The notes beneath the pieces are model-generated. The model ran no database searches. It was not told the DNA's origin and saw nothing but the letters and a program-made list of their open reading frames with translations. From Leucoraja ocellata (lineage: Eukaryota): DNA of 64,000 nt. Where the stretch lies: the NCBI GenBank assembly GCA_036785375.1, contig JAWMAR010000399.1:1984001-2048000 (forward strand), read 5' to 3'. This document shows, piece by piece, positions 1,046-63,794 of the stretch. Positions within the stretch are counted from its first letter, which is position 1, and the number at the start of each line of letters is the position of its first letter. The translations under genes were made by a program, and so were the position numbers.

Positions 1046-1075
1046 AGTCAACAACGTCAACCACATCAACCACAG
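1046..1075 (+). CDS. Mucin-like micro-exon, 30 nt, (E)STTSTTSTT
   Basis: tcccttccag|AGTCAACAACGTCAACCACATCAACCACAG|gtatga. Confidence 0.8.
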
Positions 1076-1127
1076 GTATGATTATAAACCCATCTCTTCA
1101 CCTCTGTTCCCATTATTCCAGGGGGAA

Positions 1128-3197
1128 AGTAAGTAAGTAAGTAAGTAAGTTAGTTTATTGGCCAAATATTCACATACAAGGAATTTGCCTTGGTGCTTCG
1201 CCACAAGTAACAACATGGCATACAGTGACAGTAACGAATGACTCAGAAAACACTAAACTGTTTTTATGTCTGGCTGTGGCAGCTTTGACAGTCTAGAGTC
1301 GCCTTCCAGAGGGAAGTGATTCATAGAGTTTGTGGCTAGGGTGAGAGAGGGCAGAGATGATCTTGCCCGCTCGCTTCCAGGCCCTTGCAGTGTACAGTTC
1401 ATTATGGAGGTAATGTTGCAGCCAATAACCTTCTCTGCTGATTGGACGATTCGCTGCAGCCTCCATGTGTCGTGCTTGGTGGCTGAGCCAAACCAGACCA
1501 TGATGGAGAAGGTGAGAACAGACTCTACGATGGCCATGTAGAATTGGACCATCATTACCTGTGGCAGGTTGTGCTTCCTCAGCTGCCGTAGGAAGTACAT
1601 CCTCTGTTGTACCTTTTTGACTGTGCAGTCAATGGTAGCCCCCCATTTAAGGCCCTTGGAGATGATGGTTCCCAGGAACTTAAAAGACTCCACAGATGTA
1701 ACTGTGGTGTTGTTGATGGTGAGTGGGGTGGGGGAAGGGGGAGCTTTCCCAAAGTATACAGTTATTCCACTGTCTTAGGAGCATTGAGCTGCAGGTTGTT
1801 GCTACGGCAGCAGGACACCAGCTGTGACACTTCCTGTCTGTAGACAGATTCCTCCCCATCGTGGATCAGTCCAATCAGGGTTGTGTCGTCCGCAAACTTG
1901 AGAAGCTTGACAGAGGATTCTGTGGAGGTGCAGTCGTTGGTGTAGAGAGAGAAGAGGAGAGGAGAGAGTACGCAGCCTTGCGGTGCTCCTATGCTGAGTG
2001 TTTGCGGGTCCGAGATGTGCTTTCCAAGTCTCACATGCTGCTTCCTGTCTGACAGGAAGCTGGTGATCCACTGACAGAGGGGTTCAGGCACAGTCAACTT
2101 GGAAAGTTTGTGTTCTGGCACAATGATGTTGAATGCAGAGCTAAAATCAACAAACAGAATCCCCGCATAGGTCCCCTGGCGGTCTAGGTGCTGGAGGATG
2201 AAGTGCAGGCCCAGGTTGACTGCATCATCCACAGATCTATTGGCCCGATATGTAAACTGCAGGGGGTCCAGCAGGGGGTTTGTGATATTTTTCAGCTTGG
2301 CCAGCACAAGCCTTTCGAGTGTCTTCATGACTACAGACATCAGTGCGATAGACCTGTAGTCATTAAGACAAAGAATTCTTGCCTTTTTGGGTACAGGGAC
2401 AATAGTGGAGACTTTGAAGCAGGCAGGGGCAGTACATGTTTGCTGGGACTGGTTAAAAATATCTGTATAGACCGGTGCCCTCTGTTTGACACAGAGCTTA
2501 AGAGTAGAGGGGGAAACATTGTCAGGTCTTGGAGATTTCCGGTTCGTTTTCCCCCTCAAAAGCCTCTCCACCTCCTCTATTTTTAGTGTTGATATTGGAT
2601 AAGTGATGTTGAGCATCATAGAGGGTGTGGGTGATTGGGTGTGAAGTGGTGATTGGAGGGGGGTGGGTACAGAAGGGCCCAGTCTTTGCAGACTGAGGTC
2701 AGGCTGTGAGTGTGTGTGAAGTGTTGGTTGGGGTGGGAAATGGTCCAGTCTTTTCATACTGGAATCTTGCCTTAAGTAGCTGTGAAGTGGTGAATGGGAA
2801 GGAAAGGGTGCAGGGACCATTCTTTGTAGACTGGTGTCTGGCTGTGTTGGTTGGGGAGGGAGTACCAGAGTTATGTTTCTGATTTTCAAACCTGCAGGGA
2901 AACTCATTCAGGTCATTGGTCAGCTGATGATTGTCCAAAGAGCGGAGGGCCTTCCTCTTGTAGCTGGTAATTTCTTGCAAGCCCTTCAAACTGGAGAAGA
3001 GTCATTAGCTGAGAACTTGTTCCTCAACTTCTCAGAGTACCCTTCCTTGGCAGCTCTGATTCCTCTTCTCAGCGTGTACTTGGCCTGCCTGTAGCGGTCT
3101 GCATCTCTGCTCATGTAGGCCTTCTCTTTAGACCGTCGGAGCTGTCTGAGTTCTGCAGTGAACCGGGGCTTGTTGTTGTTGAACAATGTCCTGGTCT
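1128..3197 (-). mobile_element. Rex/Babar-type LINE, 5'-truncated, frameshifted
   Basis: RT motifs ([24 protein letters not shown]) in ORF 1762-2907; C-terminal QQRMYFLRQLRK in 1253-1693; (ACTT)n 3' tail. Confidence 0.9.
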
Positions 3198-3731
3198 CTG
3201 ATAATGGATTCCATTGGCAAGGGATGTCCGATCACCTTTGTGAATAGGAGGGAAGAGTGACCCGTCTTGTGATATCCCATTCGAAATGGGTTGGATTCAG
3301 AAGACACAACAGCTCTGCGAAGTGCTGTGGAGCATCAGCTGCAGCAGAATCATTCCCTGAGTGTCTCACTTCACAAATCACTCTCACACTCATGGGGACT
3401 GAATCTGGGTCCCAACTGGGCTAACCCGACGAAACTGCAGCATGTGTGCCACATGGGAAATGCTGCTGGCAGGCGATGGGGCAAATGATCCCACAAACAA
3501 TAGATCAGATCAAAGCTCAGAAAACTCACCACAACCCATCAGGAATTATGACGGACATCGATCACGTGCTTCTCAAAATGCGTTAGGAATGCTTGCATCG
3601 GATGGAGTGCAGCCAGGCAAAGGAGGTCAGAATGGGCGATAAATGCCGGTCTTGCCAGAGTGGCCACATCTCCTAAACCAATAAACACTCGATGGTTTTA
3701 TTCTCATTGTTTATTCCCAATTGTGTTTCAG

Positions 3732-3755
3732 AAATTTTCGTTGACTATCTATTTA
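3732..3755 (+). CDS. Non-PTS spacer micro-exon, 24 nt, (E)IFVDYLF
   Basis: gtgtttcag|AAATTTTCGTTGACTATCTATTTA|gtaagt; phase 1-1; paralogues at 11380 and 48897. Confidence 0.6.
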
Positions 3756-4370
3756 GTAAGTACGATTAATTTTACTTTGTCCATGTAAAGCTAATTATTA
3801 AACTTGCAATTAGATTCAGCTGTTCAGCAACAGATGCTTCCCACAGATTATTACTAAGTTCATTTTAAAAGATGAGAGGCTTGGTCTTTAGTACAAGATC
3901 ATTACAATACAGGAGTATAGATTACTTACGGCAATTAGGCACCATCTTAATGACACCAAATCACGAGTATTGTACACAATTTTGATCTCCAGGCTCCAAA
4001 ACGGATATGATTCTGCAGAATGAAGGGAAGATTAACCAGACCTGGTGATTATAAATATGAGGATAGTAGAGAGGAGGAATGAAAGTTGTCAACACATTAA
4101 ATTCTTGGAGGGCTGGACAGGCTAGATTTGTGAAGGATATTTCCAGGGGCTCAGTAGCTTACACTATGACATCACAGACTCAGAATGAGTGGTTATGTCA
4201 TTAAGATCAGAACGATTAGCACTTTTCAGTCAGAAGGTAATAATTTAAAACCCTGATCTTTAAACTTTGCCATGTTACCAATTTCTCTTTATATGGGGAA
4301 ATGATTGAAAAATGCTGTTTGCATATACGATTGGATCGTACACTGGAGCAGGTTCAATGGCCAATACTCA

Positions 4371-4668
4371 TTTAGTTTAGTTTAGAGATACAGTGTGAAA
4401 ACAAGCCATTCAGCCTATCGAGTCCATGCCGACTAGCGATCGCTCCGTACACTAGTACTATCCTGCACACTAGGAACAATTTACAATTATACCAAACCAA
4501 TTAACCCACAAACCTCTACATCTTTGGACTATGGGAGGAAACCGGGGATCCCGGAGTAAACTCACGCAGGTCACGGGGAGAACGTATAACTTCCATACAG
4601 ACAGCTCCCGTAGTCAGGATCAAACTCATGTCTCTGGTGCTGTAAGGCAGCAACTCCACTGCTGCGCC
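4371..4668 (-). mobile_element. tRNA-derived HE1/V-SINE-like element
   Basis: Core 'tgggaggaaaccgg...ggtcacggggagaacgt...acagacagc' and (CTAAA)n tail on the minus strand. Confidence 0.75.
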
Positions 4669-4944
4669 CTTACTACTCATCTTCCTTCTTATTTCCTTAC
4701 ATTCTACTTTCCCCAGTGGAAGTCATTACATGTAAATTACTTCCACTGACCGACAACAATAATCCCATTTCACAGGTCATGTACATATTCCTGATAGCTG
4801 AAATGAACAGCGTGTCTACACTGTAAAACCAACAGCCTCCCCACTTTGCCACAGTTTCACCCAACATACCAATTCTGGTCTCTCTCCAGCAGATAATATC
4901 AGAGTGCCAGATACAACGGTTGTATGCATCCACATGAAGTCAAG

Positions 4945-6700
4945 AGTCATACAGCATGGAAACAGGACTGTCAGCACAACTAGTCCATACCGACCAACAT
5001 GTCCCATCTACACTAGTCCCACCTGCCTGTGTTTGGCCCTTATCCCTCTAAACCTTTTCATCCATGTACCTGTTCAAATATCTTTCAAATGTTGTTATAG
5101 TACCTGCCTTAACTACCCCCTCTGGCAGCTTATTCCATTCACCCACCACCACTGACTACGGGAGCTATGTGAAAAAGTTACCCCTTAGGTTCCAATTAAA
5201 TATTTCTCCATTCACAAACCTCTGTCCTCTGGTTCTTGATTCCCTTACTCCAGGTAAAATAACTCTGTGCATCTAACCTGTGCAAGTCCTGGCAACATCC
5301 TTGTAAATCCTTTCTTTATTCTTTCCAGCTTAACAACATCTTTCCTGTAGTGACCACAACTCCATAATTTTGAATGCTTTGAATATGGACAGGTCTGGAT
5401 GTTGGGGGAAGGCACTTCATTGGGGCAAGGCAGATTACAATGTCATTAGACAGGAGCTAGGAAGGGTAGAGTGAGAGCAGTGGTTATTGGGTAGGTTCAC
5501 AAATGAGAGTGCAAGTTGTTTAAAGGCAAGCTGATCAAAGTGCAGGATCAGCATGTTCCAGTAAGGAGGAGGGATAAGGACAAGAATGTAAGGGAACCGT
5601 GGATGACCAAGGAAGTTGTTACATTGGTGAGGAAGAAAAATGAAGCTTATGTTAAGTTTGTGATGGTGGCATCAGATGAGGCTCAGGAGGAATATAAAGC
5701 GGGTGGGAAATAACTCACAGGCGATTAGAAAGGCCAAAAAGGGCCTTGGCGTATTGGATTAAGGAAAATCCCAAGGGTTTTTTAATGTATATTAAAAACA
5801 TGAGGTTGACCAGGGAGAAGGTAGAACCACTCAAGGATAAAGAAGGGAAATAATGCTTGGAATTGGAGGATGTAGGGAAAGCACTAAACTTGCATCTGTA
5901 TATACCGATACAAAGGACTCGAAGGACAGCAAGATCAATGTGTAGATATGCACACTGATGCTCACTACACAAATATGCTCGGGCAGTTTGGGATCAAAAT
6001 GTAGGTGGTGCGAGACTCTTGAAGAGCATTAAGGTGGCTAAATCCCCAGGGCTTGATTGGATTTACCCAGATTATTGAGGAAGACAAGAGAGGAGATAAT
6101 GGGGGCCTTGATGAGGATCTTTGATTCTTCTCCAGCCTCAGGTGAGATCCTGGGGTACTGGAGAGTGGTCAATGTTTTTCCTTTGTTTCTGGTGAAATAA
6201 AGAGAATACAGGGAAATCTAGGCCAGTGAGACTCACGTCAGTGGTGGGAAAACTATTCTTCAAGATAGGAATTTCTCCCATTTGGAAAAGAATGGGCTAT
6301 TTAAGGATAGCTAGCATGGCTCTGTATGGGACAGGACGTGTCTCACCAACGTGATTACATTGTTTGAGGAGACGATGAGGGAGATTGATGAAGATAGGGT
6401 GGTGGATGTTGTGAACATGGATTTTAGTAAGACTTTTCATAATGTCCCTCAAGGCTGATCTAGAAGATGATGATGTACAGGATTCATGATTCATAGATTC
6501 AAAGCTGGCTTATTCATAGAAGACGGAGGATTGTGGTGGAAGGAAATGAGTAGTGGGGGCCTGGAAGGTATTGCCCCGGGTGATGGTGGAGGCAGATACA
6601 ATAGTGGCATTGAAGTTGCTTTTTGATAGGTATGTGACAGTGCCGGGAATAGAGGAATAGAGATCATATACATGCTGATGAGAGATTATCATGTTCGGCA
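4945..6700. mobile_element. Degenerate CR1 LINE fragments in both orientations
   Basis: Minus-strand 3' end (LRGNFFTQRVV-like) at 4945-5350; plus-strand decayed ORF2 (EPWMTKEV, KSPG, DFSK-like) at 5380-6490; copy at about 13040-14790. Confidence 0.75.
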
Positions 6701-7127
6701 CAAACAAGGTTTAATGTACCGTCTGCCAGAGTTATTTCCTGCCCCCCAGTCGTTACCCATAATTTGATTAAAGCTAATAAAACAGTAGTCATTGGTCCCA
6801 AAATGCTCACTCATGAACATATCAGTAGCTTGCCCTTCCCAATTTCATAAGAGCTTTGGTCTCTCTCGTGTAGGCCCCTCTACATATTGCTTGCGGAAAC
6901 TTTTCTGAACACATATGACACATATAAAACTTTCCTGAACACATATGACAAATTCCACCCCATCTAAGTATTTTGCACAATGACAGTCCCTGTCTATTTT
7001 GAGAAAATGAAAATCACCTACCAGGCCAACCTTATTAATCTTGTTTAAGAAAGAACATACAGACATACTGATCTGTTCTGTATTTATATATGCCTACAAT
7101 ATTCTGTTGTGCTGAAAAGGTGGCCCA

Positions 7128-7480
7128 GCACTCACCTCCCCCTCCCATACCCAATCTGACCTTTCAGTCCTGGGCTTCCTCCATTGTCAAAGTGAGGCCC
7201 CGGGCACTTTGGAGGATCAGCACCTCATATTTAGCTTGGGTAGTTTACACCCTAGTGGTATGAACATTGACTTCTCTAACTTCAGTTAGCCCTTGCTCTC
7301 TCTCTTCATTTTCCCCCTTCGCGGTCCTCCCACTAGTCCCATTGTCTCCGCATACATTCTTTCCTTGTTCTACCCTCTGCCCTGCCATCAGTCTGAAGAA
7401 GGGTCTCAACCAGTAACGTCACCAATTCCTTCTCTCCATGGATGCTGCCTCACCAGTTGAGTTTCTCCAGCTTTTTGTGA
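7128..7480 (+). mobile_element. Penelope-type element 3'/pLTR remnant
   Basis: 'ggaggatcagcacctcatattt...ggtatgaacattgacttc...ctgaagaagggtctc...gatgctgcct' motif series; copy at about 15805-16165. Confidence 0.6.
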
Positions 7481-8448
7481 CCAATCTTATTAATTTTGCA
7501 CCTGCCTGCAATCTCCTGGCATATCTATTACTCTAATCCCTATTGAGTATAAGGGGGCCTGCAGTTCATTTCCAACAAGGTGATCATCCCCTTTTTAATT
7601 TTTCAACTCCACCATTTGCCTCACTAGTGGATGTCATCTTGGACGACTGCATGACATTCTCCTTAATCAATAAAGCCTCTTATATCCCCACTGCAGTATC
7701 ACCTGTACCCTGGAACATTATGCTACCAGTCCTTAAATGTCTTTCTACTGGCTTCACAATTGACATTTCCTGTTGAAAGATCTCCATATCCTGCATATAC
7801 TTGAATTCCTCGCCTTTCAGCAACTTTCACCCAACCAATTCATGACCATGTGTGAAACCAAAATATAACTATTTTTGCCAAAGTATGTAGAATATGATGA
7901 TGCATTCACAGTCCTAGATTTCAAGCCAGCACTGTCAATGGTTATGTTATAAATGGTTCAATGGGACTTTATTGTCAGATGTACCGAGGTACAGTGAAAT
8001 TGTTGATTCATAATTTACGAGGGTGACTTCCAATGGAAGTAGGAGCACAAGTAACGTTTTTTGAATATAATAAAAAGTTTTCCAGAAAATTATCAGTGGT
8101 TTGCTGATACCTATTTGTGTACAAATCTTCCTATCTTTTTCAAATCCATTCATATTCATCTCAAATTTAAGTACGTGTACAGATGGTGGGGAAGCAGTGG
8201 GAAAATTATCTTGGGAAAAGAGAGGCAGATTCAACAATTTTCTCAATATAATTGTAACCTTTTGTTTTCATGTTAGAGATTAAATGGAGGACCAAAACTA
8301 TGAAATGTTTTGAAATATTGCATAAGTGCAGCAACCATGACGAAAGACGTACAGGTCTGGTGATCTGAGGAAAGGGGTAGATTCTTGCTGAATTATTGTG
8401 AAGACATTTTACACTCCACACTGACATGGTCAATTTTCTAATTTCCAG

Positions 8449-8478
8449 CATCGGCAACAACTCCGACTTCAACACCAG
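8449..8478 (+). CDS. Mucin-like micro-exon, 30 nt, xSATTPTSTP
   Basis: ctgac branch-like motif...atttccag|CATCGGCAACAACTCCGACTTCAACACCAG|gtatgg. Confidence 0.8.
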
Positions 8479-8604
8479 GTATGGTATCAACTGGGCCACA
8501 GCAGGTTGTTATCATTCATGTACATGGACCAACAGACTGATCTTCTACAAAGCCACTGCAACGCTTGTTTTAAGACCTCTATTCCAGTCTGAGCTTCCAA
8601 CTGC

Positions 8605-9185
8605 TCCCAGAGTGTACAGATACTGGATAAAGGGTATAACATTTAGTGCAAGATAAATTCCAACAAAGTGTGCTCTCTTGCAGTTTCCCAGAAACTGTCC
8701 CTGAATATGGAAATATCATTTTCAAACTTCTGTACCTCTTGACTAATGGGAGAGAGACCAGGGTGAGACAGATCCTTGATTTTGCTGGTGGCCTTGCCGA
8801 AGCAGTGTGAAGGGTAAAAGGAGACACTGGAAGGGAGGTTGGTTTGTTTGATGGTCACAGTTATTTCCACTATTCTCTGCAATTTCTTGCGGTTTTAGAT
8901 GGAACTGTTCGCAAACCATGCTGTGAGGCATCCCGATAAAATGCGTTCCAAGGCGCATATGTAATGGTTGGTGAGGATTGTTGGTGACTTTCCAAACTTC
9001 CTAAGCCTTTTAAGAAAGTAGTGGCATTGGTGTGCATTCTTGGCCATTGCTTCGATGTGGCTGGTCCAGGACAAATTGCTAGTGATATTTCTTCCTAAGT
9101 CCATGAAGCTTTCAATCATCTCTACTTCGGCGCGATCAATGTGTGTGCAATGTTTCTTTCCTGAAGTCGATCGCAATCTCCGAAC
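8605..9185 (-). mobile_element. Old Rex/Babar-type LINE 3' fragment
   Basis: ORF 8895-9200 with the LSWTSHI...HYFLKRLRKFG motif. Confidence 0.75.
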
Positions 9186-9515
9186 CAGCGGCAAGGACAA
9201 TACTAATAATCACAAAACCTACTCCAGCAATTATTTAATGTTTTTGGACAGTCAAACTAACATTACCCATTGAAATGTAGACCAGTTGGATGACAATTTT
9301 TATTCTGGATGCTCGTGACATGATATATCTCATCAAAGCACAATTTCATGATTTAAGCTTTCGAGATTTCTCGAGAAAAGCAGGGTGACAATTAATGTTC
9401 CAAATTAACAGCACAAGAACCCATTGGATGACTGGACAAAAAGTTGTTTGCTTTATATGTAATGAGATTGATTCTACAATCCTTGCACTCATATCTTCAA
9501 TTGTACCCCTTCCAG

Positions 9516-9545
9516 AGCAAACAACGTCAACCACATCAACCACAG
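9516..9545 (+). CDS. Mucin-like micro-exon, 30 nt, (E)QTTSTTSTT
   Basis: cccttccag|AGCAAACAACGTCAACCACATCAACCACAG|gtatga. Confidence 0.8.
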
Positions 9546-9596
9546 GTATGATCATAACCCCATCTCTTCACCTCTGTTCCCATTATTCCAGGGGGA

Positions 9597-10845
9597 AAGT
9601 AAGTAAGTAAGTAAGTTAGTTTATTGGTCAAGTATTCACATACAAGGAATTTGCCTTGGTGCTCTGCCCACAAGTAACAACATGGCATACAGTGACAGTT
9701 ACGAATGACTCAGAAAACACTGAACATTAATAATAATAAAACATTTATGATAAAACACCATTGATCAAGCATGTGAACCAACAAAATACAGATCAAATGG
9801 AGGCTACAGATTTTGGCTGTTGAATAGAGCAACTACTCGAGGATAAAAACTGTTTTTATGTCTGGCTGTGGCAGCTTTGACAGTCTAGAGTCGCCTTCCA
9901 GAGGGAAGTGATTCATAGAGTTTGTGGCGAGGGTGAGAGAGGGCAGAGATGATCGTGCCCGCTCCCTTCCAGGCCCTTGCAGTGTACAGTTCATTATGGA
10001 GGTAATGTTGCAGCCAATAACCTTCTCTGCTGATCGGACGATTCGCTGCAGCCTCCATGTGTCGTGCTTGGTGGCTGAGCCAAACCAGCCCATGATGGAG
10101 AAGGTGAGAACAGACTCTGTATAGACCTACATGTTTACACAGAGCTTAAGAGTAGAGGGGGAAACATTGTCAGGTCTTGGAGATTTCCGGTTCTTTTTTC
10201 CCCTGAAAAGCCTCTCCACCTCCTCTATTTTTAGTGTTGATATTGGATAAGTGATGTTGTGCATCATAGAGGGTGAGGGTGATTGGGTGTGAAGTGGTGA
10301 TTGGACGGGGGTGGGTACAGAAGGGCCCAGTCTTTGCAGACTGAGGTCAGGCTGTGAGTGTGTGTGAAGTGTTGGTTGGGGTGGGAAATGGTCCAGTCTT
10401 TTCATACTGGAATCTTGCCTTAAGTAGGTGTGAAGTGGTGAATGGGAAGGACAGGGTGCAGGGACCATTCTTTGTAGACTGGTGTCTGGCTGTGTTGGTT
10501 GGGGAGGGAGTACCAGAGTTATGTTTCTGATTTTCAAACCTGCAGGGAAACTCATTCAGGTCGTTGGTCAGCTGACGATTGTCCAAAGAGCGGGGGGCCT
10601 TCCTCTTGTAGCTGGTAATTTCTTGCAAGCCCTTCAAACTGGAGAAGAGTCATTAGCTGAGAACTTGTTCCTCAACTTCTCAGAGTACCCTTCCTTGGCA
10701 GCTCTGATTCCTCTTCTCAGCTTATACTTGGCCTGCCTGTAGAGGTCTGCATCCCTGCTCATGTAGGCCTTCTCTTTAGACCGTCGGAGCTGTCTGAGTT
10801 CTGCAGTGAACCGGGGCTTGTTGTTGTTGAACAATGTCCTGGTCT
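9597..10845 (-). mobile_element. Rex/Babar-type LINE paralogue with the RT core deleted
   Basis: Same insertion site and tail as the 1128 copy; internal deletion junction near 10117. Confidence 0.9.
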
Positions 10846-11379
10846 CTGATAATGGATTCCATTGGCAAGGGATGTCCGATCACCTTTGTGAATAGGAGGG
10901 AAGAGGGACCCGTTTTGTGAGATCCCATTCGAAATGGGTTGGATTCAGAAGACACAACAGCTCTGTGAAGTGCTGTGGAGCATCAGCTGCAGCAGAATCA
11001 TTCCCTGAGTGTCTCACCTCACAAATCACTCCTACACTCATGGGGACTGAATCTGGGTCCCAACTGGGCTAAACCGACGAAACTGCAGCATGTGTGCCAC
11101 ATGGGAAATGCTGCTGGCAGGCGATGGGGCAAATGATCCCACAAACAATAGATCAGATCAAAGCTCAGAAAACTCACCACAACCCATCAGGAATTATGAC
11201 GGACATCGATTACGTGCTTCTCAAAATGCGTTAGGAATGCTTGCATCGGATGGAGTGCAGCCAGGCAAAGGAGGTCAGAATGGGCGATAAATGCCGGTCT
11301 TGCCAGAGTGGCCACATCTCCTAAACCAATAAACATTCGATAGTTTTATTCTCATTGTTTATTCCCAATTGTGTTTCAG

Positions 11380-11406
11380 AAATTGTTGTCGTAGACTATC
11401 TATCTA
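11380..11406 (+). CDS. Non-PTS spacer micro-exon, 27 nt, (E)IVVVDYLS
   Basis: gtgtttcag|AAATTGTTGTCGTAGACTATCTATCTA|gtaagt. Confidence 0.6.
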
Positions 11407-12033
11407 GTAAGTACGATTAATTTTACTTTGTCCGTGTAAAGCTAATTATTAAACTTGCAATTAGATTCAGCTGTTCAGCAACAGATGCTTCCCACAGCTT
11501 ATTACTAAGTTCATTTTAAAAGATGAGAGGCTTGGTCTTTAGTACAAGATCATTACAATACAGGAGTATAGATTACTTACGGCAATTAGGCACCATCTTA
11601 ATGACACCAAATCACGAGTATTGTACACAATTTTGATCTCCAGGCTCCAAGACGGATATGATTCTGCAGAATGAAGGGAAGATTAACCAGACCTGGTGAT
11701 TATAAATATGAGGAGAGTAGAGAGGAGGAATGAAAGTTGTCAACACATTAAATTCTTGGAGGGCTGGACAGGCTAGATTTGTGAAGGATATTTCCAGGGC
11801 TTTCCAGGGCTTCTCAGTAGCGTACACTATGACATCACAGACTCAGAATGAGTGGTTATGTCATTAAGATCAGAATGATTAGCACTTTTCAGTCAGAAGG
11901 TAATAATTTAAAACCCTGATCTATAAACTTTGCCATGTTACCAATTTCTCTTTATATGGGGAAATGATTGAAAAATGCTGTTTGCATATACGAATGTATC
12001 GTACACTGGAGCAGGTTCAATGGCCAATATTCA

Positions 12034-49903: not shown

Positions 49904-50016
49904 CACGTAATCCCTCATCGTAACTCCTCATAAAATACAGATCAAACTTCGCACTGGTAAGTACTCGTTTAATCTTACTATTTTACTTCGGAGTCACGTG
50001 AGTGACTACGTGAAGA
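49904..50016. repeat. DIRS internal complementary region (circle-junction template)
   Basis: Reverse complement of 49678-49756 fused to the reverse complement of 54445-54480 at ...cttacta|ttttacttc... Confidence 0.92.
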
Positions 50017-50176
50017 CTTCAAAGGTCTGTGATTTCAAACCGTGTAACAGCTATATCACTCGCTGCCGAAGTTATCGAGGGAGGAAGTGGTATCTAAAGA
50101 CCAACGAATCTGTTTGTTTTTTGAAAACAAAAATGTTTATTAAACAATAACAAAAATAGCTCCCTTGGGCTTAAAA

Positions 50177-51100: not shown

Positions 51101-51147
51101 GGTGGTGATTGTTCGTTCTGATAGACCCAGTCCCTGGTAAGGCCTGG

Positions 51148-54463: not shown

Positions 54464-54769
54464 GTGACTCCGAAGTAAAATTAAAGCACAAACTACAGCA
54501 ACATTTAAAAGACATTCAGACAGGGATAAGCACAGAAGAAGTTTTGAGGGACATAGGAAACGTGGGCAGATGGGACTAGTGTAGATGGGGTAGTTTGGGC
54601 TTCATGAGCATTTCGGGTTGAGAAGACCATTTTTTGCTCTATGACTGTGAGAGTGATATGGGACAGAGATAAATACTTTAAAATTGTGTTCTTTAGATGT
54701 CCACATGTAAACGGATTATCCTGCTGTGGAGATATAATGTTAAATGCTGTTTACATACAGGATCTATAG

Positions 54770-55490
54770 ATCACCCCTTATCCTCCAGTGCTCCAAGGAA
54801 TAAAGTCCAAACCTGCTCAACCTCTCCCTATAGCTCAGGCCCTCGAGTCCTAGCAACATCGTCGTACTTCTTTCTGCACACCTTCCAGCTTTACAACATT
54901 TCCCCTATAACAGAGTGACCAAAACTGAATAATACTCCAAAAGTAGCCTCAGTAATGTCTTATATAACTGTAACATGACCTCCCAACTTCTGTACTCAAT
55001 ATCCTGTCTGATGAAGGCCAATTTGCCTAAAGCCTTTTTGGCCCCCATATCTACCTGTGACGCCACATTCAAGGAACTATGTACCTTCACTCCTAGATCC
55101 CTTTGGTCTACAATTCAGTGCATTTTTCCTGCCCTTGTTTGACTTTCCAAAATCCAACACCTCACATTTCTCTGTATTCAATTATAAATCCCATGAAACA
55201 TTTACTCACCAACCGGCTCTTTCAATCAAGATCCTACTGCATTATTTGACAACCATCTTCACTATCTACAATAACACCCACTTTAGTGTCATCTGCTAAT
55301 GTGATAGTCATGCTTTATGCTCATCTATATCATTTCTTATGGATGCCTAACAGCAATTGGCCCCGCACCGAAACCCCAGGCACACCACTAGTCACAGGCC
55401 TCCAGCCTGAAAAGCTACATTCCTCATTCACCCTCTACTTCTTTCCTTGAAGCCAATTTGTTATCCATTCAGCTATCTCCCCTTAGATCA
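54770..55490 (-). mobile_element. Degenerate CR1 ORF2 fragment
   Basis: ORF 54905-55090 (IEYRSWEVMLQLYKTL). Confidence 0.75.
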
Positions 55491-56215
55491 CAAAAGTAAG
55501 TGTCATTGTTTTGGAAGAACTACATCTCATATTCCACCTCGGTACCTAACAACCCAACGTAATGAATATTGAATTCAGGTAACCCACACGACCTTCCTTC
55601 TTCTCCCACAAACACTCACTAGTCAATCCATTTTTCTTCTGCTTTTATCCATCATTCCTATCACCACTCCCTCTATCTGTCCTCCACGTGGCTGAACTGC
55701 CCATCATTCTCTCCCCATCTCATTCCACTAATTAAGTTCCAACTTCTGTCCCACCCTAACCTGTACCGCAGTATGTTGGCTATCGTACTTCTTTCCTCTC
55801 AGTTAAGATAGAGGGATGCGTTCAGTAACATCAGACACATTCAATCTAGACAGTGAATAAACAATTTCATCAGGCCATCTGTTGTTTCACTATTCACAAA
55901 TGCCTGTCCATTCCCCTGATCACACAAACTCTACCTCACTGGAGTAAAGAGAGTGTCCTCGCTGCAAAACCAGAACCCTCCTCCCACAGCCAAAGCATTG
56001 TCTTTCACACCAATTCTTATCTTCCTTAATACAGATACAACCAGAGTGTGAATTACAACTGTTGTTGATTGCAATTGTCTGAAAATCAACAAAAGACAGT
56101 CACCGAAATCAGATTGAAAGAAATGCTTTTTTCCATGTAATTTGTTCTGTCATTTTCCATTCACCAACTCTTTCTCATGTTTTCACATTCCTACCTACAA
56201 CGGTGTCTTCTCCAG

Positions 56216-56245
56216 CACCTGAAACAACGACAACTTCAACAACAG
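56216..56245 (+). CDS. Mucin-like micro-exon, 30 nt, xPETTTTSTT
   Basis: gtcttctccag|CACCTGAAACAACGACAACTTCAACAACAG|gtatgg. Confidence 0.8.
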
Positions 56246-57769
56246 GTATGGAATTTCACAGCATATTGTCACTTGTTCCCACCTCCACAATTAATTTGCA
56301 ACATACAATTATATCTCATCTCCTTCCAGTGAATACAGTCAGACTGCTGTCTCCCCTAGTCAAACTAAGTTAACGACTGTCCAGCAATTGTTTACATGGA
56401 GTCACGCATTTCTGCTAAACTTTGCTTCTTTGCAGTGAATGAGACCATGAAGGGATCTTCACCCTGTTGACTGGGGAGTGGCCATGTTGACTGGGGAGTG
56501 GCCATTTCCCTCCAAAACCATCAGTAATCATTAGGGTTGGAAGAGTGTGGTTGAGGCTCGACTGAAAATGGTGCCTAACATGTGAGCTCATCCAGTGGGA
56601 ACTGAAGGCATTTTAAACCTGGCCTGAACGGGACAGCTGCTGCTGCTGGCCTACCAGCCCAAAGTGAGATGGCAGCAAGTAGCAATGAACAAGATCCACT
56701 CCTAGTCAACCAATTCTCTTCGCAGAAATTGGACATGCACCATTTACCAATAACCCAAACACAGATAAACTACTTTTGACAGCTATTTACTGTGTGGGGA
56801 AACTAAAACTAACATTGGGCAGGTCAGCCCACGAGTTAGTGCATCTTATGGATTGAAACTACTGTTGCTGGAGATAAATGTGGCATCAATTGTCTGCCTT
56901 CCTGCTCCAGTCTGGGTGAAAATGTGTATCCACCAGAATCTGACAGGCCTCCCATCACCACTCTGTTGGGGGATTAACCTTCGCTCCCACCAAATATGTG
57001 GAAATACAGCCCGGATTCAGCATCTCCTAATTGTAACCAAATCATCTTCATGACATGTTATTCATCAAAGATGTAATTGCCCCCCAGACCTTCAATGTGT
57101 AAGGTACCATGGTTATGGGGAGAAGACAGGAGAATGGGGTTGAGAGGGAAAGATAGATCAGCCATGATAGAATAGCGGATTAGACTCGATGGGCCAAATG
57201 GCCTACTTCTGCTCCTATGACTTCTGAATTTATGAACTATGAAAAGTTAAGAGTGTTTAATTGTCAAATGAATAATGAAATTCTTACTTGCAGCAGCATA
57301 AGTAATTGTTCCTCATCTTCAACCCATGAGAACATGAAAACATGAATCAGCAGAAGAAGTCAGCACGCAGGTCTTTCAGTTTCTGCCAGTCATTCATCAA
57401 GATAATGGCTAATATAGCAACCCAGAATCTACATCAGAATATGCATAGACATACCGAATCTCCTCAATCTTTGAAGAAAGAAGAGGTATTGATGGACATT
57501 GTTGAAGATTACATCAATATACTGGGCCCAGGACAGATCTTCAGAGATATGCATGCCCAGTAACTTGAAAGAGTTTACTCTCTCCATCATTATTGCAGAA
57601 GGTAGCGCCAGTGAGATTTGAGCCGGCATTGATCGATTGTGTTGGTAGGTAATTGTAGTGGGTTCAGGTCTTCACCAAGGTGGGTGTTGATATGCACCAA
57701 AACCAACCACTCAAAGCACTTCTTCATCACGAGATTAGTGCCACTGTTTAGTGGTCATTGAGACATGTT

Positions 57770-58045
57770 TAGTTCAGTTAAGCTTAGATGAGTTTAATTT
57801 AGTTCAGTTTTAATTTAGTCCCAGTGACCAGCGATCACCTGTACACTATTTCTACCCCACATGCCAGGGACAATTTATAGAAGCCAATTCATGTACGAAT
57901 CGGCAGGTCTTTGGAATGTGGGAAGAAACACACATGGTCACAGGGAGAACATTCAATCTCCGGACAGACACTAAATGTAGTCAGGATCTAATCCGGGTGT
58001 ATGGCGTTGTAAGGCAACATCTCTGTGGCTGCACCACTGTGTCGC
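57770..58045 (-). mobile_element. Diverged HE1/V-SINE-like element
   Basis: tgtgggaagaaac...ggtcacagggagaac...cagaca core. Confidence 0.6.
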
Positions 58046-58926
58046 CCTCTGTACTCTTCTTGTCATGGTACTCTTCTAGGGCCCGAGTATTATTGAAGCC
58101 CTTTGAAGCAGATAGGAACCTCAGACCTTAATAATGACACATTCAAGATGTCCGCAAAATCTCCTGCGAGTTGGTTGGCTTAGTTACTTGGTTCACCCTC
58201 GTGATGCATCTTCTGACGCCGGCCTTGGTGAATGAAAATACGATGCCATTGGAAGCTCTGGGTGCTCGAGAAGACACGTCCGTGTTCAACATTTCAAATC
58301 GAGCGTAGAATGCAACAAGCCTAACCGGGAATGATGCCACACTCTCGCTTGAGCTGCCACATGGTTTTGTGAAGGCGTGCGAGCCCTGCCACAGTTGCTG
58401 AATATCCATCTCATCTTCCAGTTTGGAGCAAAATTGTCTTTCCAAAGCATCCTTCCACTGAATTGATCAAGGGTGGAAATGGAATGTATTACTGTTTTTC
58501 AACCATGCATGCTTATACATTTCCCTTGCCTCAGTGATGCTCAATAAACTTAACATACAGTAAGTAAAACACCATCTGAGTTCAATCTCCTGTACTGACT
58601 ATGCAATCATAAGGAGCAACTGAATAAAGATGCAGAGAAAGTATTACACATTAAGGTCACCCTTATTCTTCTTTGCTCCAAGGATTACGGTCCTGGCCTG
58701 CCTGGCCTCTCACTACAGTTCAGGCCCACAGGTCCCGGCACCATCCTTGTTAATCTTCTCAGCACCGTTTCCAGCTTAACACATCATTACTGTAGTAGGG
58801 AAACATTTTACAATAATGGCTTGAAGTTTCCAATTCAATATCCTGAGGACTGTTAACTATGAACTGAGGCAAAATTAATTGATATTGCACTGCGCCTATT
58901 CACACAAACTAATGTCTTCCGTCCAG

Positions 58927-58953
58927 CATCAACATCGACCACAACTTCAACAA
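58927..58953 (+). CDS. Micro-exon, 27 nt, (A)STSTTTST, weakened donor
   Basis: ttccgtccag|CATCAACATCGACCACAACTTCAACAA|gtgaag (paralogue 44115 has gtaagtga). Confidence 0.5.
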
Positions 58954-60773
58954 GTGAAGAACAACACATTAACACTTTGCATTAACTTGGGAACAACTAT
59001 TCCCAGGATGTTAACTTGTTGCTTTTGATGAAGTGGAGGAATTTTAATACTTTCAGTCAAAATCTTAATATAATCTTATCTTAACCTTTCTGAGGTTGTT
59101 GTAAACTTGGGAATTATGAAATGAGTGGCAAAAATTCTGCTCTATGTCATAATTTTACTGAAATAAAATTTGAGATCTACACAAATGAGACATGACAGGG
59201 CACAGCTGTCAGGTGAGTGGGGGAGTTTAATGAAGATGTTCAGGGCAAATTTTTTAACCAAGATAGTGGGGGCTGGAAGTCGGGACACATTGCCAGGAGT
59301 CGTGGTGGAGGCATACACTATAGTGCCGTTTAAGAGGCTTTTTGATTGGCACATTGAAGTACAGGGAAGAGAAGGATTGAATTGCTAATCAGCAAAACCG
59401 TTGATTGGTTGTAGCAAGTGAACTTCAGGTCAGGTCAGATACAAGAACTTTAAAAAGCCCGTCCATGGATAGGTCTGTAAAATAAGAAAATTTTAACCCA
59501 GAGAGTTGTGAATTTGTGGAATTCCCTGCCACAGAGGGCAGTGGAGGCCGAATCACTGGATGGATTTAAGAGAGAGTTAGATAGAACTCTAGGGGCTAGT
59601 GGAATAAAGGGATATGGGGAGAAAGCAGGCACGGGTCATTGATTGGGAACGATCAGCCATGATCACAATGAATGGCGGTGCTGGCTCGAAGGGCCGAATG
59701 GCCTCCTCCTGCACCTATTTTTTCTATGTTTCTAGAGGAGCATACTAGACCTTGAAATTAGCCTAGCCAGGTTACAGGTGTAACAGCCTTAGAATATTTT
59801 GGGATCAGTGATCACAACTCCATAAGTTTTAATGTGGAAACATGGAACTACAGATGCCGGATATGTTTTAAGTTTGTTGTGAAGAGTGATAAGTCTGGAC
59901 CTTGCGGGAAGGTACTAAATTGCGAGAATTGCAGATTACAGCAACATTTAGCAGGAGCTAGGGTGAGTAAAGTGAGCCGCTGTCATTGTGCAAGTACTCA
60001 TCTGACCGATGGGAGACACACACTGGCAAGTTGATCAGTGTTTAAGACCAGCATGTTTCAATAAGGAGGAAGGATAAGGATGGCAATGGAAGGGAACCTT
60101 GGCTGATCACAGAGGTTGTAACAGCTCAAAAGAAAAATGAACTTTGTGTAAGGATTAGAAAGAAGAAATCGGACAAGTACTTTGAGGAATATAAAGCAAT
60201 CAGGAAATAAATCACACTGGCAATAGGTGAAAAAATATCCCAAGGCTTTGTATACATCCATGAAAATCAATAGGGTAACAAGGGAAACAGTAGGACTGAT
60301 CATGGATAAAGAAGGGAATTTTTGCTTGTAGTCAGAGGATGTATACGAGGTAGTGAACGAGTACTTTGCATCAACGGTGTTTTCATGGTCCCTTATGTTT
60401 GTAAGCAGGAGCACAAAAATGTTTCTTGAATATAAATTGACTTTACAGAAAACTATCAACGTTCTGTTGATACCTATTCAAGTACAAATATACCAATGAT
60501 GTTCTCAAATATTCATATTCATCTCAAATTTAAGTAAGTGAACAGAGCAATGCAGATGGTGAAGAAGCAGTGGGAAAGTGATCTTGGAAAAGAAAGGCGC
60601 ATTCAACAATTTTCTCGATATAATTCTGAACTTTTGTTACCAAAACTGTGCAATCTTTTGCAATGTTATGGAAGTGTAGCAACCACGAGGAAAGATAGAC
60701 CAGTAGACAGATGGACAGGATTGGGATGAAATTTTACACTCCACACTGACATGGTCAATTTTCTCATTTCCAG

Positions 60774-60803
60774 CATCGACAACAACTCCGACTTCAACAA
60801 CAG
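60774..60803 (+). CDS. Mucin-like micro-exon, 30 nt, xSTTTPTSTT
   Basis: catttccag|CATCGACAACAACTCCGACTTCAACAACAG|gtatgg. Confidence 0.8.
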
Positions 60804-61088
60804 GTATGGTATCAGCTGGGCCACAGCAGGTTGTTATCATTCATGTATACGGACCAACAGACTGATCTTCCACAAAGCCACTGCGATGCTTTATTTTAGA
60901 CCTTCATTACAGTGTGAAGTACTACGTTCCTTTCACCTCCCATACCAAGAGCCGCATTGAATAGTGTGGAATCTTTGCATGTGTTACCTTTATCATGGGT
61001 TTATTTAACTCCAAACAACTCTCCCAATTATCGACGGTGCAATTGCTCAGCATCCTCAGGAACTAAAACAAAAAATCTTTATTTACAA

Positions 61089-61124
61089 CATCAACACTTC
61101 AGACAACTACTTCGACTTCAACAG
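61089..61124 (+). pseudogene. Decayed 36-nt micro-exon (ASTLQTTTSTST), acceptor AG>AA
   Basis: tttatttacaa|CATCAACACTTCAGACAACTACTTCGACTTCAACAG|gtaata. Confidence 0.6.
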
Positions 61125-61369
61125 GTAATAAGTTTGCAATAAAAAATTGTGATTTGCATGATCCTCCCGTCTCTGCACTGTTCAATTTCCAAATATCCCA
61201 CTCATGAACATGGACACTTAAGATGTAAATTAATTAAACCAGCAGTGTGGACATATTTCATAATCATAAAACCTACTGCACTAATAATTTAATGTTTTTT
61301 TAGGAAGTCAAACTGGCTTTATCCATTGATACATAGACTAGTTGGATGGGAATTTTCATTCTGGGTCCT

Positions 61370-62584
61370 CCGCCGGAGGGGATTTTTGCTGGTCGGTTGT
61401 GCGTTTATGAGGCCAACCGTTTTCGCCTTATCATCCAATTCTCGGACCTGTTTTGAATAGTCGTCACCGAACAGTAAATTTGGCGACTGCACGTTGCTTG
61501 TCTTGCATAGTGCGGCAAACTTCGGATTTAGCATGGGGCGGATTGCACTCTTCCTCAGACAGTTTATCTCAAAATGTGTATTGCACATTAAGTCAAGAGC
61601 ATCCTGCTGTACCTCGGACAAAGCCCCACCATCAAGCGACCCGGCGAATGCGTAATTCCTGAAGCAAGCAGCTTTAGAATCTTTTGGAGCCTCAGTTCCT
61701 GGGCTCTGATACCCGCACCCATGTGACCCCAGAGAGGGTGGTTCACAGTTGGGACTTTCAATGAGGCACAATTGGCGGGTGTCTGGTATTTTTTGGAGGT
61801 TTCCTCCATCGTGAGGTCTTGTAGCTGGTGTGAGACCATGTAGTTGATGGTCATGGACAGATCCTCATCCAGCGGTCCCGATCGGCAAATTTAGATGCCA
61901 TGTTTGGCACCTCTGATTCCTGGCCTTCTTGCCTGGAGGTATGCTCACCAGCTATTATTCCGACCTCAGAGTCAGAACAAAATTGACTCTGTGTACTCTC
62001 CTCCTCCAAGAGGGAGACATTATGCAGCCCTACTACAGGTGCTGCTGCCACGGGCCCACGAGTAGACCCGTGGATATAACGCTCGTCTGTCTCGAGCTCA
62101 TCGTGATGGAGCATCCTCCCCATCAGGAGCTCCATCCTGGACAGCCGCCCAAAAACGGCATCCATCGTGGGAGACAATCCTCCTGACCCGACTCATCAGA
62201 GTCTAAGGGCCTAATTGACTCCGGCCCACTGGAGTAGCCATGGTGCCTTCCACCGGTTGGAAGCCACTGGCCGTGCCGCCAGTGACTCTGAAGGCGAGAT
62301 GGACAGCCGCCCGCTACCCACACTTCCGCGGTCCTCTGTAGCTGCTCTCCCAGCATACCGACTCGACCTTCCCTTCACCATTTTCTCCATAGTCGACTTG
62401 TTTCCTGCAAACAAAATTTAACGACCGCAGAAAATGACCTGAGTTAAGTTTTCACGGTTTTTAACTTACCGCTGGTGGATCTACGCCCTCCCAGACCGTC
62501 GGAGCGCCATGCATCAGATTTAATGACGCGCATGCGGACTAGCAGGCTTCATCACGGAATCACTCACGTGACTCCGAAGTAAAA
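61370..62584 (-). mobile_element. Second DIRS1-like element, 5' terminus plus decayed gag only
   Basis: Terminus tcactcacgtgactccgaagtaaaa identical to the first element; gag motif LMCNTHFEINCLRK..IRPMLNPKFA. Confidence 0.85.
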
Positions 62585-63468
62585 TTGTGTGTTTGACCTG
62601 TTCTTTGCCTCCCTCCCACCATTCCCCACTCCACTCCGTCTCTCCCTCGACTGTTTGCCCGGCAGGAATTAACGATCTACTATAGCATCAACAAAGTGCA
62701 GGTTCTAGTTTTCCAAATAAGGAAGGTCACAGTCCGAAATATCACTTATCCATGTTCTCCAGAGATGAGGCCTGACACGCTGAGTTACTCCAGCACTTTG
62801 TCTTTTTTTTAATTTCCTGCGGACTGCCTTTCTAAAGTTTCGAGAAGTGCTGCTTTTACTTCAGTGAATGAAACACTGCAAACAACCCATAAACACTGAG
62901 AAGGCGTACGAGAGGCATCAAAGCTCGGCCAAGACAACAGGCTGTCTGAAAAATATAGTCCTTAAACGCCTTTCGAGTGGCATCACAATTAAGATTTCCC
63001 ATTGGAAGATAATGGATACAATACACGTATATATCCTGCATGCGAATGAATTCCTTGCCTCTCAGCAACAATCACCCATCAAATTTATGAACATGTGCGA
63101 AACTATACTACAGATATTTCTTAAAAAATTAGGGAGAATATTATGATGCATTTGCAGGGCTGTCAATGGTTATGTTTGAAATCAGGAGTACAAAAATGTT
63201 TCCTGAACATAAAAAGAGTTTGCAGAAAACAATCAATATTCTGTTAATACCTATCTTGGGAAAAGAGAGGCAGATTCAACAATGTTCACAAAATAATTCT
63301 AATCTTTTGTTTACATGTTACATATTAAATGGAGGTCCAAAAACATGAAATGTTTTGAAATATTACATATGTGTAGCAACCATGAGGAAAGATAGACGGG
63401 TGGACAGATGGACAGGATTGAGATGAAATTTGACACTCCACTGACATGGTCAATTGTCTCATTTCCAG

Positions 63469-63498
63469 CATCGACAACGACCCCAACTTCAACAACAG
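63469..63498 (+). CDS. Mucin-like micro-exon, 30 nt, (A)STTTPTSTT
   Basis: catttccag|CATCGACAACGACCCCAACTTCAACAACAG|gtatgg. Confidence 0.8.
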
Positions 63499-63764
63499 GT
63501 ATGGTATCAGCTGGGCCACAGCAGGTTGTTATCATTCATATACATGGACCAACCGACTGATCATCTATAAAGCCACTGCAACACTAGTTTTCAGACCTCC
63601 ATTCTAGTCTGAGCCTCCACATTCCTTTCACCTCCCATTCCAGGAGCCGCATTGAATGGTGTGGAATCTCTGCTTGTATTACCTTATTTAATTCCAAACA
63701 ACTCACCCAATGATGGAATTGCTCAGATTCCACTGCAATTAAACAGACAAATCTTGATTTACAG

Positions 63765-63794
63765 CATCAACATTTCAAACAACTACTTCAACTG
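63765..63794 (+). CDS. Mucin-like micro-exon, 30 nt, (A)STFQTTTST
   Basis: gatttacag|CATCAACATTTCAAACAACTACTTCAACTG|gtaata. Confidence 0.75.

Follow-up and report, generated by a model that had tools for sequence, protein, structure and literature searches.

A micro-exon array in the skate Leucoraja ocellata most likely encodes the PTS domain, missed by annotation, of a secreted MUC6-like mucin

What is encoded by the short, T/S-rich cassettes scattered over a 64,000-nucleotide stretch of the Leucoraja ocellata genome (hereafter the window; positions 1,984,001 to 2,048,000 of contig JAWMAR010000399.1, referred to as C399)? The original prediction, which left the gene unnamed, had read them as symmetric phase-1 micro-exons of a mucin PTS domain in a cartilaginous fish, and this is borne out by flanking exons that match mucin-6-like models. 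We are confident that a single gene for a secreted, gel-forming mucin of MUC6-like type contains the cassettes as coding micro-exons. This gene would run from D1-D2-D3 through the PTS to a brief Cys-rich stretch and a cystine knot, and the array most likely supplies the PTS domain that annotation lacks. The PTS would be written as one repeat of 7 to 16 codons per exon, with no fourth VWD. What the sequence shows is the anatomy of the cassettes, the exons on either side, compatible phases, and homology at both ends to named elasmobranch mucin models.

A flank-anchored catalogue of the 64-kb window contains 34 related cassette sites, 33 of them found automatically and one (58927-58953) placed by hand, its boundary falling inside an alignment gap. 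An AG acceptor, a GT donor, a length divisible by three, and no internal stop are found at 32 of the 34 sites. Contrary to the original prediction, not every relative is intact: 920-932 is 13 nt long, and 61089-61124 carries AA in place of AG. As predicted over this range, 27 sites are intact, G/A-ending, and 24 to 48 nt long in phase 1-1 on the plus strand; the other seven are weak or broken. The sites fall into at least eight families arranged in higher-order blocks, non-PTS spacer exons included, and are listed here by window position:

920..63794, plus strand: portion of the micro-exon PTS array of the MUC6-like gene; the window does not reach the exons for the D domains and the cystine knot
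920..932, plus strand: family G, 13 nt, broken by a 14-nt deletion, donor -1 is T
1046..1075, plus strand: family B micro-exon, 30 nt
3732..3755, plus strand: family E micro-exon, 24 nt, hydrophobic/aromatic non-PTS spacer
8449..8478, plus strand: family A micro-exon, 30 nt
9516..9545, plus strand: family B micro-exon, 30 nt
11380..11406, plus strand: family E micro-exon, 27 nt, one codon more than 3732-3755
17134..17163, plus strand: family A micro-exon, 30 nt
18561..18587, plus strand: family G, 27 nt, donor weak owing to T at -1, would give a stop when joined to next cassette
18701..18730, plus strand: family B micro-exon, 30 nt
21753..21779, plus strand: family G, 27 nt, weak donor, would give a stop when joined to next cassette
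22808..22837, plus strand: diverged member of family B, 30 nt, weak donor
25052..25081, plus strand: family A micro-exon, 30 nt
25364..25396, plus strand: family D micro-exon, 33 nt
28527..28574, plus strand: family F micro-exon, 48 nt, T/S together with aromatic residues
30382..30408, plus strand: family G, 27 nt, weak donor, would give a stop when joined to next cassette
30522..30551, plus strand: family B micro-exon, 30 nt
39121..39150, plus strand: family A micro-exon, 30 nt
39424..39456, plus strand: family D micro-exon, 33 nt
42821..42868, plus strand: family F micro-exon (diverged paralogue), 48 nt
44115..44141, plus strand: family C micro-exon, 27 nt
46076..46105, plus strand: family A micro-exon, 30 nt
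46427..46438, plus strand: family J candidate, 12 nt, weak donor, doubtful
46527..46553, plus strand: family B micro-exon (diverged subfamily), 27 nt
46820..46849, plus strand: family C micro-exon, 30 nt
48166..48195, plus strand: family A micro-exon, 30 nt
48474..48503, plus strand: family D micro-exon (diverged subfamily), 30 nt
48897..48923, plus strand: family E micro-exon (diverged paralogue), 27 nt
56216..56245, plus strand: family H micro-exon, 30 nt
57599..57610, plus strand: family J candidate, 12 nt, weak donor, doubtful
58927..58953, plus strand: family C cassette, 27 nt, weakened donor
60774..60803, plus strand: family A micro-exon, 30 nt
61089..61124, plus strand: family D cassette, 36 nt, acceptor lost, with AA in place of AG
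63469..63498, plus strand: family A micro-exon, 30 nt
63765..63794, plus strand: family D micro-exon (diverged subfamily), 30 nt

Joined in order, the 27 intact cassettes give 831 nt, or 277 codons, with 0 stops and 75% T/S/P, in agreement with the single open frame originally proposed. Neighboring cassettes are 88 to 8,569 nt apart, and Tandem Repeats Finder detected no long coding repeat in the window. Branch-like motifs had been described as frequent, a claim that the counts do not support: YTRAY occurs at -45 to -14 of 12 of the 34 sites, compared to a background of 23%, and eight of those 12 belong to one family. In a wider catalogue of ~100 kb, 65 of 67 sites are intact (AG, GT, divisible by three, no internal stop), all 65 in phase 1.

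A strict scan, requiring YAG, a pyrimidine tract, a donor matching at least 6 of 9 positions, a length divisible by three, and at least 60% T/S, returned 21 matches in phase 1 of the plus strand of the window and none in the other five strand/phase combinations. The same scan had no match in any of seven 10-kb flanking loci outside the array, and third-order Markov windows gave none in 37 of 40 cases and a single match in the remaining three. When the length filter was dropped, 21 of 23 matches were still divisible by three. The copies arose through block duplication and are not independent of each other.

Could the cassettes belong to a dispersed repeat family, or be an assembly artefact that resembles exons? 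The window does contain multi-kb duplications that are 85 to 99% identical, which would suit such a reading, but every scored genome match of family A (40/40, from 93 candidates), family B (40/40, from 89 candidates), family E (20/20), and family F (14/14) lies in this locus on the gene strand, whereas a true interspersed repeat from the same region has 3,101 candidates genome-wide. Dispersal across the genome, which the original prediction had named as grounds for its own rejection, is largely refuted by these four families, and copies are distinguished from each other by substitutions and codon indels. We regard a repeat or artefact as very improbable. These scored matches are confined to two contigs, C399 and C11, which are apparently haplotypes.

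As predicted, the array fills the window, but the window holds only about a fifth of it, and the array continues far beyond on both sides, from ~C399:1,806,889 upstream to C11:3,498,280 downstream. Its span is 270 to 360 kb, of which ~100 kb was read, and an estimated 140 to 200 PTS exons of 21 to 48 nt lie within a gene of about 480 kb. The array differs in length by ~97 kb between the two contigs, which suggests a VNTR-like polymorphism of whole exon-intron blocks; together with the multi-kb duplications, this difference also means that copy number may be mis-assembled.

The flanks, inspected as the original prediction had advised, point to a MUC6-like gene, with D1-D3 upstream and a cystine knot downstream. 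Exons for D1-D3 lie in order on the gene strand at C399:1.723-1.796 Mb, where the Amblyraja model P0003 (VWD, C8, and TIL by Pfam) maps with 66 to 95% identity; the D3 exons were read directly, and D1-D2 were placed by this mapping. Pfam VWD matches occur at C399:1,745,389 and 1,784,552, upstream exons reach E values of 1.4e-8 for VWD and 9e-14 for C8, and one is 100% identical over 77 aa to a little-skate "mucin-6-like" model. Among 21 homologues of a D3 exon, 19 are models from skates, sharks, and a stingray that are called "mucin-6-like", and 20 carry mucin-6 names when an amphibian mucin-6 at 55% is included, these names being automatic and the search word-limited. The RefSeq proteins of these relatives are predictions and do not themselves prove splicing.

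On both sides, the array hands over to its flanking exons in phase 1: the last upstream Cys exon (C399:1,798,016-078) is a 63-nt phase 1-1 exon, and phase 1 is also where the first exon beyond the array (C11:3,495,990) begins. Exons on that side form a chain of 35, 141, 61, 103, and 166 nt, three of them Cys-rich and the last two for the cystine knot, with canonical sites and consistent phases through to the stop. All five exons match, in order, the 173-aa skate model P0026 (Pfam Cys_knot, E = 5.8e-9), with 23/32 and 24/50 residues identical in the two terminal exons. Taken alone, the first cystine-knot exon falls below the Pfam Cys_knot cut-off (E = 0.017) and the second has no Pfam match. 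In a stingray model, P0005, D3 is followed by PTS and then by sequence homologous to downstream exons one and two, with 9/11 and 27/47 residues identical. No fourth VWD-C8-TIL unit follows the PTS, as the downstream exons join the cystine knot in phase and match P0026 contiguously, and none of the 150 VWD candidates that were scored, out of 312, falls at C11:3.468-3.498 Mb. In agreement with the expectation that standard annotation would miss the array, two skate N-terminal models end ahead of the PTS, and the C-terminus is the separate 173-aa model of another skate.

In what may be a head-to-head arrangement, as for Muc2 and Muc6, VWD and Cys_knot matches on the opposite strand at C399:0.86-1.09 Mb face the other way from the genes on the array strand, which occupy 1.2-2.05 Mb, and further MUC6-like paralogues sit between them and the array gene. 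Human AP2A2 (alpha-adaptin) lies at the 3' end of MUC6; the skate alpha-adaptin gene lies beyond the opposite-strand genes and not 3' of the array gene.

Alternatively, the array could be a decayed or silent relic, either in a pseudogene or in a gene with a short PTS-less (ovomucin-like) product, with cassettes that are neutrally amplified remnants. Four of 12 listed raw-read RNA runs (5 to 25% of each) had zero depth on three micro-exons, weak and broken copies exist, and the first PTS exon candidate (C399:1,801,473) is interrupted by a repeat after ~49 nt, its donor not found. There is also no synonymous excess within families (13/35 observed versus 11.5 expected, p = 0.36), and changes that are synonymous or retain T/S/P are only weakly enriched (24/35 versus 53% expected, p = 0.047). 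However, 65 of 67 sites are intact, and six families show whole-codon length variants; gap events are divisible by three in 7 of 10 cases in exons, compared with 6 of 26 in the flanking sequence (Fisher p = 0.018), the three exonic exceptions being one real 14-nt deletion and two untraced 1-nt gaps. Conservation between seven old families is highest at splice signals, with ungapped identities of 0.56 to 0.62 at the acceptor tract and exon ends versus 0.28 to 0.33 in distal flanks. Exon identity between families is itself inflated by the selection of T/S-rich cassettes. Every flanking exon that was examined has an open frame bounded by canonical sites, and in shark and ray models D3 runs on into T/S-rich units. 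Recent block duplication homogenizes exon and intron alike, so intactness is partly due to youth. On balance, a relic seems unlikely.

As coding micro-exons, the cassettes would form an array that gains and loses length by unequal crossing-over of multi-kb exon-plus-intron blocks, with symmetric phase 1-1 exons preserving the frame under gain, loss, or skipping. Exons with strong sites would mostly be included, and weak or damaged copies could be skipped without frame cost. When joined to the cassette that follows, each of the three T-ending family G cassettes creates a TAG codon, and some skipping is therefore required to avoid a truncated transcript. The product would be an O-glycosylated rod of ~1,400 to 2,000 residues flanked by N-terminal D-domain and C-terminal cystine-knot polymerization modules, as in other gel-forming mucins, its length probably varying to some extent through skipping and more through allele differences.

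The gene structure would allow the combinatorial splicing envisaged in the original prediction. Skipping might also be regulated, such that cell type or condition picks exon subsets, including the family E and F spacers, for a programmed mucin length and composition, with the T-ending cassettes as poison exons. None of the 351 forward skip pairs of the 27 intact cassettes, all in phase 1-1, creates a stop, their donors range from -0.5 to 5.9 bits (approximate matrix), and the stop-creating subfamily occurs three times. There is precedent in the in-frame removal of a chicken MUC2 PTS exon and in the Xenopus integumentary mucin FIM-C.1, termed polymorphic via alternative splicing (PMC3549977 and PMC7177656, respectively). 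Against this, no junction read was found in the four RNA runs, but an ordinary 141-nt exon of the gene also had zero depth, which makes these runs uninformative on splicing. Symmetric phase is equally needed for growth by exon duplication and does not imply regulation. Family G copies farther 3' are G-ending and without a junction stop, and the sole frameshifted copy comes from the subfamily ending in T, a pattern more in keeping with decay than with function. We therefore consider regulated combinatorial splicing possible but doubtful.

Several known systems resemble the micro-exon array in part. Schistosome micro-exon genes contain runs of very short symmetric exons, as found here, and encode secreted proteins, some O-glycosylated, with reported isoform diversity, whereas such diversity is putative for the skate gene; they are small, have no relationship to the skate gene, and lack both D-domains and a cystine knot. 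The repeats of the Xenopus integumentary mucin FIM-B.1 are cassette-encoded. FIM-B.1 is described as a VWD mucin (PMC7177656). FIM-C.1 contains trefoil modules, whereas neither trefoil nor sushi was seen between the skate D3 and cystine knot on reading the exon chain. Vertebrate MUC6, human and chondrichthyan (Lang et al. 2016, PMC4948705), has three VWD-C8-TIL units, PTS, no fourth VWD, and a terminal cystine knot like the skate gene, which lies in a gel-forming mucin cluster with opposite-strand VWD genes. Human MUC6 has 33 exons, and its PTS lies in the 12,294-bp exon 31 of 507-bp repeats (PMC6269512). In contrast, the skate cassettes are scattered rather than held in one large central exon, and the gene has ~80 extra Cys-rich residues ahead of the cystine knot.

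Chicken Muc13 has its own exon per PTS repeat, for which splicing-based length control and an ancestral vertebrate design were proposed (Lang et al. 2006, PMC1552070), but it is a membrane SEA mucin with near-identical exons, and the skate gene is a secreted VWD/cystine-knot type with at least eight families including spacers. Chicken MUC2 is gel-forming, with PTS repeats over exons 32 to 45 and an in-frame spliced variant (PMC3549977), yet its 64 exons occupy 74.5 kb, its repeats are 69 residues long, and it carries CysD inserts, against exons of 7 to 16 codons and about 480 kb in the skate. With exon-per-repeat mucins already known from chicken Muc13 and the multi-exon PTS of chicken MUC2, the skate array is an extreme form and not a new design, although its scale was not found described in the literature searched.

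Current annotation splits this gene into N-terminal "mucin-6-like" and C-terminal "intestinal mucin-like" models and misses the whole mucin domain; the array rejoins them. As the models lack the PTS, elasmobranch mucus proteomics and mucin inventories may search databases without it. A more speculative proposal, which we hold to be rather unlikely, is that the elasmobranch phase-1 array, with 150 to 200 interchangeable micro-exons, is a regulated splicing code by which one allele yields many gel-forming mucins whose length, glycan density, and cross-linking are programmed, with aromatic/hydrophobic spacer exons that may be common to sharks and rays, and that it is a surviving ancestral exon-per-repeat state from before intron loss gave the mammalian single exon. 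If true, it would be the largest vertebrate micro-exon diversity generator. The locus extends exon-per-repeat coding from the membrane mucin Muc13 to a MUC6-type gel-former, on a scale of about 150 to 200 exons, and provides a test bed for the ideas of Lang et al. (2006) that a multi-exon PTS is ancestral and that mucin length is set by splicing within an individual.

A plain scan for AG...GT cassettes refound the phase 1-1 micro-exons of the original prediction in place. A flank-anchored catalogue of the window holds 34 related sites in families A to H and J, 32 of which combine an AG, a GT, and a length divisible by three with the lack of an internal stop. The 27 cassettes originally proposed proved to be the exact number of intact, G/A-ending sites of 24 to 48 nt, and joined in genomic order they total 831 nt (277 codons) with no stops and 75% Thr/Ser/Pro; junction stops are likewise missing from all 351 forward skip pairs among them. 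A strict scan gave 21 matches, all in phase 1 of the + strand rather than in any of the five other strand/phase combinations; seven flanking 10-kb loci had no matches, and 40 Markov-simulated windows had at most one each. The proposal that branch-like motifs often precede the cassettes did not hold as an enrichment (12 of 34 sites versus a 23% background, mostly in one family).

The cassettes are very probably coding exons of a secreted MUC6-like mucin, as judged from sequence. A dispersed repeat or an artefact fits more poorly than coding exons and is highly improbable. Genome-wide dispersal of the cassettes was checked, and the scored matches of four families all fall in the array locus and one second copy of it on contig C11 (A, 40/40 from 93 candidates; B, 40/40 from 89 candidates; F, 14/14; E, 20/20). 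Within the window, multi-kb block duplications are 85 to 99% identical, and cassette copies are not independent events because they derive from these blocks.

Non-PTS exons encoding hydrophobic/aromatic spacers are scattered through the array (window 3732-3755, 11380-11406, 48897-48923, 28527-28574, and 42821-42868); these may be putative self-association or protease sites. Array introns also hold inverted pairs of interspersed repeats (window 31858-33013 and 41309-42020), and folding of these pairs might influence which exons are chosen. A young MITE-like element probably accounts for window 49678-49982, where two perfectly inverted 79-nt copies flank a 147-nt spacer.

Inspection of the flanks, proposed as a route to the gene's name, uncovered VWD and C8 matches in upstream exons on the same strand as the array and cystine-knot exons downstream. 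One upstream exon is 100% identical over 77 residues to a Leucoraja erinacea "mucin-6-like" protein and 99% identical to that of Amblyraja radiata, and mucin-6 names are attached to 20 of its 21 homologues. A further D3 exon matches the little-skate model at all but one residue, and the Amblyraja model maps in order onto 1.723-1.796 Mb of contig C399, which carries the window. Downstream, exons of 35, 141, 61, 103, and 166 nt have canonical sites and consistent phases through to the stop; all five match, in order, a Rhinoraja longicauda (skate) model of 173 residues named "intestinal mucin-like protein", which has a cystine knot. Phase 1 is shared by the end of the last upstream Cys exon and the start of the first downstream one, as a phase 1-1 array requires on both sides. 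In the stingray model XP_072906151.1, D3 is followed by T/S-rich units and then by homologues of the first two downstream exons. After D3, shark models have T-rich units of roughly 10 residues plus a short Val/Gly-containing spacer, which hints at an array architecture common to sharks and skate. By its domain content, the gene fits the MUC6-type gel-forming mucins. That annotation had missed the array, as first suspected, is borne out: because two skate N-terminal models end before the Thr/Ser/Pro-rich (PTS) domain and the C terminus sits in the separate 173-residue model, public annotation splits the gene and omits its middle.

A candidate first PTS exon at C399:1,801,473 (position 1473 of the fetched stretch L011) resembles the PTS start in stingray and whale-shark models; a repeat insertion interrupts it after about 49 nt, and no donor was found for it. 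No candidate emerged when short relatives of the stingray C-terminal region were sought, and a genome-wide Cys_knot search did not detect the split knot of this gene. The protein record P0023, 100% identical to the 141-nt exon, was rejected as a transcript; it is a genomic read-through open reading frame. The 3' untranslated region is unread because about 60 nt past the stop codon the sequence passes into a run of N (C11 about 3,468,200, stretch L006). At least two further MUC6-like paralogues, about 55 to 60% identical, lie on the same strand at C399:1.20-1.53 Mb, and the gap of about 190 kb that follows the D3 located at 1.53 Mb may conceal a further array of micro-exons from a different family. 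On contigs C252 and C801, VWD and cystine-knot matches form another large cluster with many tandem genes, a predicted expanded mucin-like cluster.

Contig C399, on which the window occupies 1,984,001-2,048,000, stops 6 kb past the window at a position that matches C11:3,517,880 with 100% identity, and the two contigs give paired matches across the whole gene cluster; we therefore infer that the pair represents two haplotypes. The array extends from near C399:1,806,889 to C11:3,498,280, and the gene spans about 477 kb on C11 from the first D1 match to the stop. The same gene lies at C11:3.47-3.95 Mb on near-identical sequence; block order also differs, the stretch from D3 to the C399 end is about 97 kb longer on C11, and family F has five copies on C399 and nine on C11. 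Uncollapsed haplotypes that vary in allelic block copy number could account for these differences, as could mis-assembly. Reading covered about 100 kb of the array and the remainder is known from search coordinates alone, so that the total of about 142 to 194 exons, extrapolated from window density, is a rough estimate, since the 3' end of the array is twice as dense as the window.

Once two spurious alignments (L011 8773 and L001 5668) and the first PTS exon candidate, which lacks a located end, were removed, the window and fetched flanks together hold 67 sites, 65 of them intact. Of 10 gap events in exons, 7 are multiples of three; in flanks this holds for 6 of 26 (p=0.018). Seven old families agree best with one another at the acceptor tract and exon ends (identity 0.56 to 0.62) and drop to 0.28 to 0.33 in distal flanks, the between-family exon values being inflated by composition. 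That the array is a silent relic is a poorer fit than coding exons and is improbable. Mucin repeats are usually under loose sequence constraint, and substitutions offer little positive support for selection on the cassettes: no synonymous excess was significant (13 of 35 changes versus 11.5 expected, p=0.36; two single-site "stop" calls were artefacts of double substitutions), and changes retaining T/S/P or the residue were weakly enriched (24/35, p=0.047).

Some cassettes are damaged: one at 920-932 has lost 14 nt, and another at 61089-61124 has AA where AG is expected. Three members of family G end in T:

Window 18561-18587, + strand: T-ending family G cassette with a weak donor
Window 21753-21779, + strand: T-ending family G cassette with a weak donor
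Window 30382-30408, + strand: T-ending family G cassette with a weak donor

Joining any of these to the next AG-starting cassette creates a TAG codon, and the three are possibly decayed or poison exons; some skipping of cassettes would be obligatory. Towards the 3' end of the array, family G copies carry a final G instead and create no junction stop. Because the sole frameshifted copy belongs to the T-ending subfamily and the 3' copies are stop-free, this subfamily is suggested, from that one event, to be a decaying skipped lineage.

RNA was sought in parts of four raw-read runs (X8, X11, X12, and X15, of 12 listed; species matched by label), against a 3.6-kb stretch outside the window (L012) that covers the final three micro-exons together with the 35-nt and 141-nt exons. 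No RNA data set was listed for window 44000-49500. Depth in the parts read was 0 on the 141-nt exon and the micro-exons, which is uninformative for splicing, and coverage was confined to a dispersed repeat and a few low-depth intronic patches. In every one of the four runs the repeat (L012:1900-2280) had depths in the thousands on each strand, and this depth comes from other genomic copies. Expression of the gene was undetected in the parts read, and splicing of the cassettes is predicted from the DNA sequence. Regulated skipping that makes a repertoire of mucins is unlikely.

Gel-forming mucins are polymerised by their D-domains and cystine knot. For coding cassettes, the same parts would polymerise the skate mucin, and the array would supply an O-glycosylated rod extrapolated to about 1,400 to 2,000 residues. 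Symmetric phase would allow blocks to be duplicated, deleted, or skipped without a frameshift, and would explain why the blocks are organised at a higher order, why the contigs differ in length, and why dead copies are tolerated.

The textbook PTS structure of gel-forming mucins is a single exon. Cassette exons are known from FIM-B.1, and schistosome micro-exon genes are a further comparison. Whereas the human MUC6 PTS lies within one 12.3-kb exon (PMC6269512), that of the skate MUC6-like gene is predicted to be built of many micro-exons. Chondrichthyan Muc6 is already known, defined by three VWD units and the absence of a fourth (PMC4948705). In chicken Muc13 each repeat is its own exon, proposed to be ancestral and to permit splicing control (PMC1552070); the PTS of chicken MUC2 spans multiple exons, with an in-frame spliced form (PMC3549977); and FIM-C.1 is termed polymorphic via splicing (PMC7177656). 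MUC19 was rejected as a multi-exon precedent, the literature consulted giving it no support and the available preprint text describing an intron-free central exon in the longest isoform (PMC13345508). No prior description of the skate array was found in the literature outside subscription papers and supplements; the supplementary gene tables of PMC4948705 may bear on this. Chicken Muc13 resembles the proposed skate structure in its one exon per repeat, and chicken MUC2 in its multi-exon PTS. The exon-per-repeat design is already known, and the skate array is a real example of it, of unusual size and absent from annotation, in a mucin class of single-exon textbook structure.
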